A DNA stretch of 39,922 bases from a virus: the UHGV virus genome UHGV-1470964; one strand, 5' to 3'. Position numbers: made by a program. Below are positions 17,701 to 20,700 of the stretch, piece after piece; position 1 is the first letter of the stretch, and every line of letters begins with the position of its first letter.

Positions 17701-20700
17701 ACCAGCTTGTTCCTTCTGCCGTTGCTGACAGCTTGCGGGAATACGCAGACAGTTTACGTTCCATCCCCAGTGGTGCCGATAAGCGCTGACCTGACTGCAG
17801 AAACGCCGATCCCAGGAATGGCGGTTCCGTTCACGTGGCAGGCAAGTCTGGAGTTAAACGCTCAGCTCTATACGGCGCTAGGGCAGTGCAATCTGGATAA
17901 GGCGGCAATCAGGAAAATCGAATCATCACGAGCCTCGCAATAGCGGGGCTTTTTTATGCCCGCAGTAAACCCGCGCATTCTCGTGCGCATATCAACCAAG
18001 AGCCTTTCGGGGTAGAGCTTGAGATAGGGCAGTGGTAACGCTGACCGCTCTTGGGCTGCCCGTATCTACGAGAACAGGCTCAACCACCAAAAGGTATCAG
18101 CGAAATGAAATCATTAACCCTCTTCAATCAACCAATCCGTGTCGGGGAAGACGGCATGATCTGCCTCACCGATATGTGGAAAGCCAGTGGCAAAAGTGAT
18201 GCTGAATCGCCTTACCACTATCTGCGAAACAAGCAGACCAAAGAGTTCCTGGCCGAGCTGGAGAAAAACCACGAATCTGTGGTTTTTACTGCCCGCGGCG
18301 TACACGGCGGAACCTATGGCGGGAAGTTTGTTGCTTACGATTATGCTGCCTGGTTAAACCCCGGTTTCAAGTACGCGGCATATAAGGTCCTCGATGACTA
18401 CTTCACCGGAGAGCTTCAGCATCGCAACAGCTTAAGTGCGCAGCTCAACATGAAGTGCCATGAGTTTGACCAGAAGAAGGACATGGCGAGCTTCTGCGGA
18501 CAAGGACTTGCTGCATGGCGTTATACGAAGCCTGTATTGGTCGCTGAGATTAACACCCTTGCTAACCAGCTGCAGATTACGATCCCAGGGCTGCCGGGAT
18601 GAGTAATCGCGTAATCGAATGCGCCTCCAGAGCAGGGCGCGACTTCTCAGAGTTCATGAAAGGCGAGAAGGACATGATGCAAGTGCTGGCCTCGGTTGAT
18701 CAGTTTGGCGAGCAACTCCGTCTCAACGGCTGCGTCAATCATCACTTTGTCAGTTACATGATGAGGAACTCGATCATGCAGGCATTCATGGACATGGCAA
18801 ACGCCGAGAAGAAAGAAGAGCGCCGCCGTAAAAGAGCGGAAGCAAAAACGAAGTAGTCATTACAGAAGCCCTTCATTGAGGGCTTCGATAATGGAGCACT
18901 GGAATTATTCATGAACAGACCACACCCACCAGCGCATTTTACGATGCCACCTGACCCGAAGCCGTACATCAGCATTATGCCCGCTAATGACGTTGGCGAG
19001 TGGCTGAATCAGCACATCCTGAGCGATGAGGGTGACCTCTACAACCATGACCACCAGCATTTGCTTGAAGCGGATCTGTGCTTTCTCTGGGCATCGAACG
19101 CTTTCGAGAAGAAAGGGCGTTCCGTGCTGGGGCAGGCGGAAGAAGTGGCAATGCGTGCCGGAGGCTGGCAGAAAGCGCGGATGGAGCAGCAGATGTATGA
19201 ATGGTTCGGCAGGGTGCCGCATTTCATCATCACGCTCGCCGCCGATTACTGTTCGCAATGTTCCGATCTGGAGTTCTGCGCGCTGATAGAGCACGAGCTT
19301 TATCACATCTGCCAGGCGACAGATGAATTTGGTGCGCCGAAGTTCACGCAGGAAGGGCAGCCAAAGCTGAAGCTGCGCGGCCATGACGTGGAAGAGTTTG
19401 TGGGCGTGGTTCGCCGTTACGGTGCAAGCCGGGACGTGCAGGAAATGATTGATGCGGCGAATCAGCCAGCGGAGGTTGCTCATCTCGATATTGCCAGAGC
19501 GTGCGGGACGTGCATGTTAAAGCTGGCGTGAATTCTAGACTGGTATGGACGGATGGTGAAATATGGCTGCTTTAAAACCGGAAGTAAAAGCCTTCATCAT
19601 TCAATCGCTTGCGTGCTTTGATACTCCTTCTCAAGTTGTCGAATCCGTCAAGAAAGAGTTTGGGTTAACTATTTCTCGCCAGCAAGCCGAAGCACACGAC
19701 CCAACCAAGGCTAGTAGCAAAGGTTTAGCCAAGAAGTGGATCGAGATGTTCCACGCGACACGCGAACGATTCCTGACCGAAACCAGTGACATTCCGATAG
19801 CGAACAAATCCTATCGGCTCCGCGTGCTTGACCGCATGGCAACCAAAACCGAGGGGATGAAAAACTTCTCCCTGACGGCGCAGCTGATTGAACAGGCCGC
19901 GAAAGAGGTTGGAGACGCTTACACCAATAAGCTGAAGGTTGAAAGCACTGGCAAGGATGGCGGCCCGATCAAGACCGAGACGACCAACCTCACCGCAGAT
20001 CAGGCCGCAGAGATTTACCGCAAGATGATGGGGTGATCATGCCTCTCCCGTTTGAATTCGATTTCAGAAACCCTGATTACCAGATGGTTTTTGAATGGCG
20101 GATGGAGCGCTTACAGCGCATTCGCCAGAACCCTGAAATGCTGCCAGCGCTAAAGCAGTTTTACCGCACCAACCCGGCACAGTTCATCATCGACTGGGGG
20201 ATGACTACTGACCCGCGTAACATCGATTATGGCCTGCCGGTCACCATCCCTTTTCTGCTGTTTCCGAAACAGGAAGAGTGGATTCACTGGATCATGGAGC
20301 GGCGCGAACGGCTGGAGAACGGCATCACCGAAAAGAGCCGCGAAATGGGGCTCAGCTGGACGGCGATCGGGCTGGCCTGTTCGCTCTGCCTCTTCAACAA
20401 AGAAATGGTCATCGGCTTCGGCTCCCGTAAAGAGGAATACGTCGACAGCACCGGAGACCCGAAGGCGCTGTTCTGGAAGGCGCGCAAGTTCGTGGAAACG
20501 CTGCCCGTCGAGTTTCGCGGTTCGTGGGACGAGAAGAAGCACGCGCCGTACATGCGCGTTGAGTTTCCCGATACTGGCGCGGTTATCAAAGGCGAGGCTG
20601 GCGACAATATCGGACGTGGTGACCGTACCACGCTCTACCTGGTGGATGAAGCTGCATTCCTCCAGCGTCCTCTGTTGATTGATGCGGCGCTGTCGCAAAC

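Follow-up and report, generated by a model that had tools for sequence, protein, structure and literature searches.

A mobile KilA-N cassette and a zincin linked to a predicted DUF2280-type small terminase in the late operon of a lambdoid prophage

Introduction

Among the described systems closest to the locus analyzed here, the cosB R-sites of phage lambda and the pacL boxes of SPP1 are repeats next to terS that are bound by its product, the small terminase subunit (TerS), while the HNH protein of HK97-like phages assists cos cleavage. KilA-N domains, for their part, are found in the abortive-infection protein BstA (PMC8585504). The present work concerns three neighboring genes of UHGV virus genome UHGV-1470964, which encode a KilA-N protein, a small basic protein of 85 amino acids (aa), and a zincin with an HExxH motif; the whole stretch of DNA analyzed, 39,922 nucleotides (nt) in length, is referred to as the window. 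The window is a lambdoid prophage, and the three genes lie within its Q-dependent late operon, directly ahead of a DUF2280 gene and the gene terL for the large terminase subunit (TerL).

An earlier note on this DNA had described three open reading frames (ORFs) at 18105-19531, between the lysis and packaging genes, as one accessory block. All three ORFs are present there on the plus strand, and their calls as KilA-N, small basic, and HExxH proteins were borne out by Pfam, PHROG, an isoelectric point of 9.4 for the small protein, and an HELYH motif in the zincin. The three proteins belong to known, uncharacterized families, which are common in prophages of E. coli, Salmonella, Klebsiella, Pseudomonas, and Acinetobacter. 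On balance, and with confidence only slightly above even, we favor the reading that the interval joins a mobile KilA-N cargo pair to a zincin that is a packaging-linked partner of the DUF2280-type TerS.

Two Units between Lysis and Packaging Genes

Megablast searches against phages and 5426 complete E. coli genomes showed that the interval consists of two pieces with independent distributions, parting at 18858-18910. The left piece (about 17930-18910) matches HK620 hkbK-hkbL, Stx phages, and Salmonella phages, while the right piece (18858-20100) matches another set, for example many E. coli prophages and the Citrobacter phage Omnitron, in which it is accompanied by the DUF2280 and TerL genes. 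All three genes occur together in only 1 of the 5426 E. coli genomes and, therefore, the single block of the earlier note did not survive the comparison. Among 80 viral contigs selected for the 85-aa small gene, the left ends of DNA similarity lie mostly at 17930-17949 (36 loci) or at the KilA-N start, the right ends of cassette similarity fall at 18870-18899 with a cluster at 18890-18899, and a zincin is present in only 9 contigs; the zincin-module similarity found by megablast has its left end at 18858. Judging from these distributions, the interval is composed of two separately inherited late-operon units that meet at a conserved hairpin, and a further hairpin at the end of the lysis genes is the left cassette boundary in many relatives. 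As had been expected for the lysis-terminase junction, the gap between lysis and packaging genes is a variable cargo site, with genes from 46 unrelated clusters standing directly upstream of the zincin across 79 loci.

The junction hairpin, which is common to both similarity sets, has a stem of 8-10 base pairs and a loop of 4-6 nt, and its outer CATTA and TAATG pair as well. It occurs once in the window, where none is expected by chance, and recurs in 151 of the 256 loci fetched, including those of HK620 (L002 4922-4957), HK97 (L256 3164-3199), and phage 2851 (L003 4265-4300). In every case it is on the strand of the late genes and separates the lysis/KilA genes from the module that follows. 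Its 37 sequence variants show compensatory changes at 8 of 15 pairs. The hairpin has no U-tract, and Rfam gave no match over the whole window at gathering score nor over 17850-19650 at E <= 1; its role may lie in RNA processing or stability, or it may be a recombination linker. Locus L125 contains a second hairpin built in the same way (4461-4497).

Linkage of the Zincin to the DUF2280 Gene

In all of the 80 viral contigs whose zincin is 71-99% identical to that of the window, the DUF2280 gene starts 30-33 nt past the zincin stop, and the genes that follow DUF2280 belong to seven unrelated TerL clusters, Terminase_3 and Terminase_6N types among them. The association also holds in the reverse direction, with a zincin upstream in 77 of 77 evaluable DUF2280 loci. 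A second lineage, in which the zincin is 46-65% and DUF2280 50-60% identical, keeps the zincin upstream in 75 of 75 loci; the distance is at most 60 nt in 72 of them and 163-631 nt in the remaining three. The same order is found in Pseudomonas phage JBD44, where gp16 (zincin), a 31-nt gap, gp17 (DUF2280), and gp18 (TerL) follow one another. Altogether, more than 230 loci of enterobacterial, Pseudomonas, and other phages have a co-directional zincin, mostly 30-60 nt upstream of DUF2280. As for nine distant zincins (33-46% identity), four adjoin DUF2280, two lie within 0.6-4 kb of it, and one adjoins another gene in the TerS position; of the remaining two, one has no terminase within 4 kb and the other is on a contig too short to tell.

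Locus L125 carries a 98%-identical TerL, a Terminase_2-type TerS, and no zincin. Since L125 keeps TerL and the TerS tail in the absence of the zincin, the zincin tracks the N-terminal domain of DUF2280 and not TerL. The pairing with DUF2280 thus holds whatever TerL follows and is lost with a Terminase_2-type TerS, which argues that the zincin is not free cargo. We read this family-level co-occurrence at a fixed spacing, with moderate confidence, as co-expression and participation in a shared process. The earlier claim that the genes are not part of lysis or packaging holds for the KilA-N pair, which has no tie to lysis or packaging families, but not for the zincin, whose constant neighbor is the DUF2280 TerS. 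In the proposed mechanism, the zincin would be co-expressed with the DUF2280-type TerS and would work with it at or around packaging initiation, and it would then be an accessory factor rather than host-directed cargo.

Several points weigh against such a partnership. The TerL and head of L125 can package without a zincin, and 486 pairs of loci combine zincins of at least 90% identity with DUF2280 N-domains of less than 75% identity, the recombination breakpoint lying at the end of the zincin gene; because the alleles recombine freely, no allele-specific co-adaptation of zincin and DUF2280 is apparent. One zincin, at 8397-8606 of L251, has no terminase within 4 kb and is located among small uncharacterized genes. 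Moreover, adjacency alone is compatible both with a functional partnership and with a mere operon or cis constraint, and the literature searched on PF18894, PhageMetallopep, DUF2280, ORF11CD3, and late-operon KilA-N proteins contained no publication giving a function, or functional data, for any of the three genes. A gene with an Acb2/Tad1-hairpin domain, which marks anti-defence regions, is located about 4 kb downstream of the L251 zincin.

In a different explanation, all three genes are cargo acting on the host or its defences and the zincin cleaves a host or defence protein rather than taking part in packaging. The hypervariable site with its 46 upstream-neighbor clusters, the mobility of the KilA-N cassette, the shuffling of zincin alleles independently of terS alleles, packaging by the same TerL without a zincin in L125, and the distant zincin among small accessory genes near the Acb2/Tad1-like gene are all consistent with it. 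However, cargo at this site otherwise turns over fast, while more than 230 loci in several lineages keep the zincin 30-60 nt before DUF2280, and no PADLOC or defence-family signal was found for the zincin. We therefore regard an all-cargo origin of the interval as possible but rather improbable.

DUF2280 as a Small Terminase Subunit

The DUF2280 gene is directly upstream of terL and overlaps its start in GTGA, and the protein presents the features of a TerS, i.e., a length of about 150 aa, a predicted DNA-binding N-terminal part, and a putative TerL-binding tail. Its final 39 aa match the end of the Terminase_2 TerS of L125 at 62% identity (L125 4553-5107 compared with 19563-20036 of the window). 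From gene position and sequence similarity, the DUF2280 protein is assigned as the small terminase subunit. Because the tail is common to DUF2280-type and Terminase_2-type proteins, TerS is modular here, with a swappable N-terminal DNA-recognition part joined to a TerL-specific tail. In one locus (L067 1599-2795), the DUF2280 ORF runs on to give a 398-aa product with a Gly/Thr/Ser-rich, tail-fibre-like extension, for which a frameshift, a chimeric assembly, or a genuine fusion could account.

The spacer between the zincin and terS carries the repeats CTAGACTGGT and ATGGACGGAT at 19535-19554, with a phase of about 10 nt. Phased repeat pairs recur in most lineages, in the form of CCTGGAC, TATGAC, GCTGTACG, CTTTAAC, or ACGTTACC, each present twice; the repeat unit varies among lineages and the pair is kept, with copies at L336 3627-3648 (JBD44) and L257 ~4975-4994 as well as in L254, L253, L089, and L006. 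At least seven of eight repeat positions match in 51% of the 37 spacer variants, compared with 2.7% of shuffles. In addition, the spacer class is shared by 532 of 556 pairs from the same DUF2280 cluster but by only 408 of 968 pairs from the same zincin cluster. The phased repeats may be bound by TerS, as a pac or cosB-like site, or may serve as a translational operator. In loci L257-L318, which represent an Acinetobacter/other lineage, a terminator-like hairpin, TGAGCCTTTTGGCTC followed by T8, is located between the zincin stop and the repeats (~4943-5000). Because this intrinsic-terminator-like hairpin intervenes, the zincin and terS of these loci would be transcriptionally separate unless transcription is antiterminated.

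The repeats bear on a further explanation, namely that a cis constraint holds the zincin gene beside terS, so that it hitch-hikes with a TerS site or translational operator in its 3' end or in the spacer; the activity of the zincin could then be of any kind. Such a constraint would be compatible with phased repeats standing directly before the terS Shine-Dalgarno sequence in most lineages and with several phage records that end at the zincin and begin at terS, although record starts at terS may be mere annotator's convention. On the other hand, inheritance of the repeats follows DUF2280 rather than the zincin, they persist where genes or a terminator part the zincin from terS (L089 and L257), and the zincin protein itself is under purifying selection. 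A search for a pac-like element inside the zincin ORF revealed no clear peak of depressed synonymous variation. Since the spacer class tracks DUF2280 and no synonymous dip was seen, a TerS-specific site within the zincin gene is weakened as the cause of the linkage, and we consider hitch-hiking unlikely.

The Zincin Protein

The zincin matches PF18894 over its full length (5e-43; 146.8 bits against a cut-off of 23.7), with HELYH at residues 128-132 (nt 19292-19306). Among 28 diverse members, H48, W86, G100, H128, E129, H132, H158, G171, and C198 are invariant and D159, E161, and G199 near-invariant, and the family has conserved motifs of its own, i.e., a DHxH motif (H48 and H50) and a C-terminal CGTC. 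The AlphaFold model is confident, with a predicted local distance difference test (pLDDT) score of 91.7, and within this model the zincin metallopeptidase fold, comprising a mixed beta-sheet, the HExxH helix, and a downstream third metal ligand, was confirmed. A fold search of BFVD returned PF18894 members only. The protein is thus predicted to be a zinc-dependent hydrolase, most likely a protease.

A bolder version of the favored reading is that PF18894 zincins are dedicated to DUF2280-type TerS, that they perform a proteolytic step in packaging initiation, and that the phased repeats are the TerS recognition site. Such a step could be the remodelling or removal of TerS, or of other DNA-bound proteins, at the packaging start site. 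This combination is put forward only tentatively.

The family comprises at least 910 representative clusters at 50% identity (E <= 1e-3), mostly of stand-alone proteins of 200-220 aa, and tblastn found it in 144 phage records, mainly from Acinetobacter and Pseudomonas phages. Some longer members have an N-terminal helix-turn-helix (HTH) with weak matches to MerR, HTH_8, and HTH_Tnp_1. PF18894 zincins are labeled 'transposase' in many RefSeq/GenBank phage records, among them those of JBD44 (gp16), ZF40, phiPSA1, TRS1, and YMC phages, and in PHROG family phrog_513. Pfam, however, gives only PF18894 in the window protein and in nine longer members, with no detectable transposase domain, and the label is probably an error propagated from the HTH-bearing long forms. 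With an hhalign probability of 0.1-0.2, homology of the long-form HTH was rejected both for the N-domain of DUF2280 and for the protein in the TerS position of L092.

The KilA-N Cassette

The first unit, at about 17930-18895, contains the KilA-N gene and the 85-aa gene. The KilA-N protein combines KilA-N (PF04383; residues 10-101; 3.6e-15, 56.2 bits against a gathering cut-off of 23.8) with ORF11CD3 (PF10549; residues 109-161; 2.4e-13, 50.5 bits against a cut-off of 25), and PHROG Rha-like and anti-repressor families also match the ORF11CD3 stretch; it is a predicted DNA-binding protein of the Bro/KilA network. Copies of its gene, 85-100% identical, are located after Rz in HK620, Stx phages, and Salmonella phages. 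The 85-aa protein has no Pfam match but is matched end to end by phrog_875 (8.5e-51), and it ends in a Lys/Arg tail, KKEERRRKRAEAKTK. AlphaFold predicts a three-helix bundle (pLDDT 92.9), a fold that is uninformative. C8, C45, H48, and H49 are conserved in this family, which suggests that the protein could bind metal. The family is a narrow one, confined to Enterobacterales and comprising 132 clusters at 90% identity.

The KilA-N stop and the start of the 85-aa gene overlap in ATGA, and the two genes are translationally coupled. The small gene abuts a KilA-N gene in all of the 80 loci, which encode KilA-N+ORF11CD3 in 68 cases and KilA-N+P63C in 12. As in hkbK/hkbL-type cassettes, the window has a phrog_875 gene directly after a KilA-N gene and beyond the spanin genes, and in the annotated phages HK620, HK97, 2851, Dewey, and S107 the pair always comes after the spanin genes. 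The packaging modules that follow are different: HK620 has P22-like genes 3/2 there, while phage 2851 and HK97 have HNH and terS/terL. Because the cassette follows the spanins in phages with unrelated packaging modules, a cargo reading fits it, and by its sequence distribution the pair is a mobile cassette that has moved among lambdoid phages such as HK97, HK620, and Stx phages. Expressed late, the KilA-N protein and its partner would act jointly, as a pair that binds DNA or resembles regulators of the Bro/antirepressor network, and the cassette would be accessory cargo.

No sigma-70-like promoter-like site was found ahead of the cassette (plus strand, 17944-18104) or of the zincin unit, so both are probably expressed from the Q-modified late transcript. 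A moron in the sense of Juhala and Hendrix was rejected for the cassette, which has no sigma-70 promoter-like site of its own in that interval and is followed by a junction hairpin free of a U-tract.

The same observations bear on the idea that the KilA-N protein and its partner are a prophage defence or toxin-neutralizer pair, either BstA-like or a Kil-type toxin with its inhibitor, which guards the lysogen. The two genes overlap, are inherited together, and show very high conservation, and the only PADLOC match, to PDC-S22, is a weak one at 2e-8 over the KilA-N stretch. However, none of the BstA models gave a match, and the protein, about half as long as BstA, does not have the BstA C-terminal domain. 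Given that no promoter-like site precedes the cassette and that it is positioned past pR'/tR' and a further terminator-like hairpin, its expression in the lysogen is unlikely, and we give the defence-pair explanation little credence.

Genomic Setting

The features of the window discussed here are listed in Table 1. Downstream of TerL, a DUF1073 portal gene and then a Mu-F-like head gene are encoded on the plus strand, and a near-syntenic E. coli prophage has an identical annotation. Median ratios of nonsynonymous to synonymous substitution rates (dN/dS) against relatives are 0.03 for the KilA-N gene, 0.06 for the 85-aa gene, and 0.09 for the zincin gene, so all three ORFs are genuine, constrained coding genes. 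A long antisense ORF at 18905-19483 is spurious, because the sense genes are under constraint. NCBIfam gave no matches, and PDB sequence searches gave none for the zincin, DUF2280, or KilA-N protein. The HNH_3+AP2 gene, located between the pR'/tR' region and the holin gene, whose start (16620) it overlaps, looks like a homing-endonuclease-type insertion into the late leader.

Table 1. Coordinates of late-region features in the window.
Feature	Position	Strand	Basis or remark
Q antiterminator	14998-15621		
pR'-like promoter	15664-15692		
tR'-like terminator	15726-15754		
Terminator-like hairpin	16013-16030		
HNH_3 + AP2-domain endonuclease gene	16145-16645	+	
Holin, lysozyme, Rz/Rz1	16620-17943	+	Upstream flank
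Terminator-like hairpin and T-run, overlapping the Rz1 stop codon	17930-17951	+	Scan match
KilA-N + ORF11CD3 protein, 165 aa, homolog of HK620 hkbK	18105-18602	+	Pfam, PHROG
85-aa basic partner, HK620 hkbL/HK97 p61 family	18599-18856	+	phrog_875
Interrupted hairpin, CATTACA-(stem-loop)-GATAATG, 36 nt	18858-18893	+	Junction between cassette and packaging-proximal module
PF18894 zincin-like metallopeptidase, 206 aa	18911-19531	+	Pfam PhageMetallopep
Zincin-terS spacer, 31 nt	19532-19562	+	Two direct repeats, then terS Shine-Dalgarno
DUF2280 gene (predicted terS)	19563-20036	+	Pfam 6.8e-49
TerL	20033-21661	+	phrog_2, 2.7e-32; RefSeq relatives annotated TerL

Significance

The association of the zincin with TerS, for which no prior description was found in the searchable literature, offers a concrete and testable lead for an uncharacterized enzyme family, and DUF2280 is identified, by the similarity of its tail and its gene position, as a small terminase whose DNA-recognition domain can be swapped. 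If the bolder reading given above is true, proteolysis by the zincin would be part of packaging initiation across a large group of proteobacterial temperate phages. The KilA-N pair, in turn, occurs in the model phages HK97 and HK620 and in Stx phages, which are genetically tractable.

Comparison with Known Systems

Similar to the lambda cosB R-sites and the SPP1 pacL boxes, the window has short phased repeats directly before terS, which here co-vary with the TerS allele. The candidate site differs from both in having only two copies in 20 nt that abut the Shine-Dalgarno sequence. The HNH gene of HK97 gp74 type resembles the zincin gene in that a small metal-dependent enzyme is encoded directly before terS in the late operon, although the HNH protein and the zincin are unrelated in fold and chemistry. 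By analogy to this endonuclease, the HExxH protein might be a YbeY-like metal-dependent nuclease that aids terminase cleavage; we consider such a nuclease role very improbable.

In the predicted model, the zincin fold resembles the minigluzincins projannalysin, selecase, and proabylysin as well as SprT, Spartan, and Wss1, although identity to minigluzincins and SprT is 10-15% and less than half of the 206 aa is aligned. Membership in the SprT/Wss1 DNA-dependent proteases, a group defined by sequence or profile similarity, a DNA-binding module, and DNA-stimulated proteolysis, was rejected for the zincin.

BstA and the window KilA-N protein are alike in having a KilA-N or KilA-N-like DNA-binding domain and in being prophage-encoded. 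Members of the BstA family, however, join a KilA-N-like domain to a BstA C-domain in about 300 aa, while the window protein, which PADLOC did not match to BstA, is encoded in a late operon and is much shorter. The cassette is closer to HK620 hkbK-hkbL, HK97 p60-p61, and the pair of phage 2851, in which a KilA-N protein and a small helical protein likewise follow Rz/Rz1. The HK620/HK97-type cassettes end at the same junction hairpin as that of the window, with a DNA identity of 84-92%; HK97, together with 12 of the 80 loci, has KilA-N+P63C, unlike the KilA-N+ORF11CD3 of the window. For the zincin, the nearest named counterpart is gp16 of JBD44, which is 60% identical to the window protein, has the same architecture, and is likewise encoded 31 nt before a DUF2280 gene, gp17.

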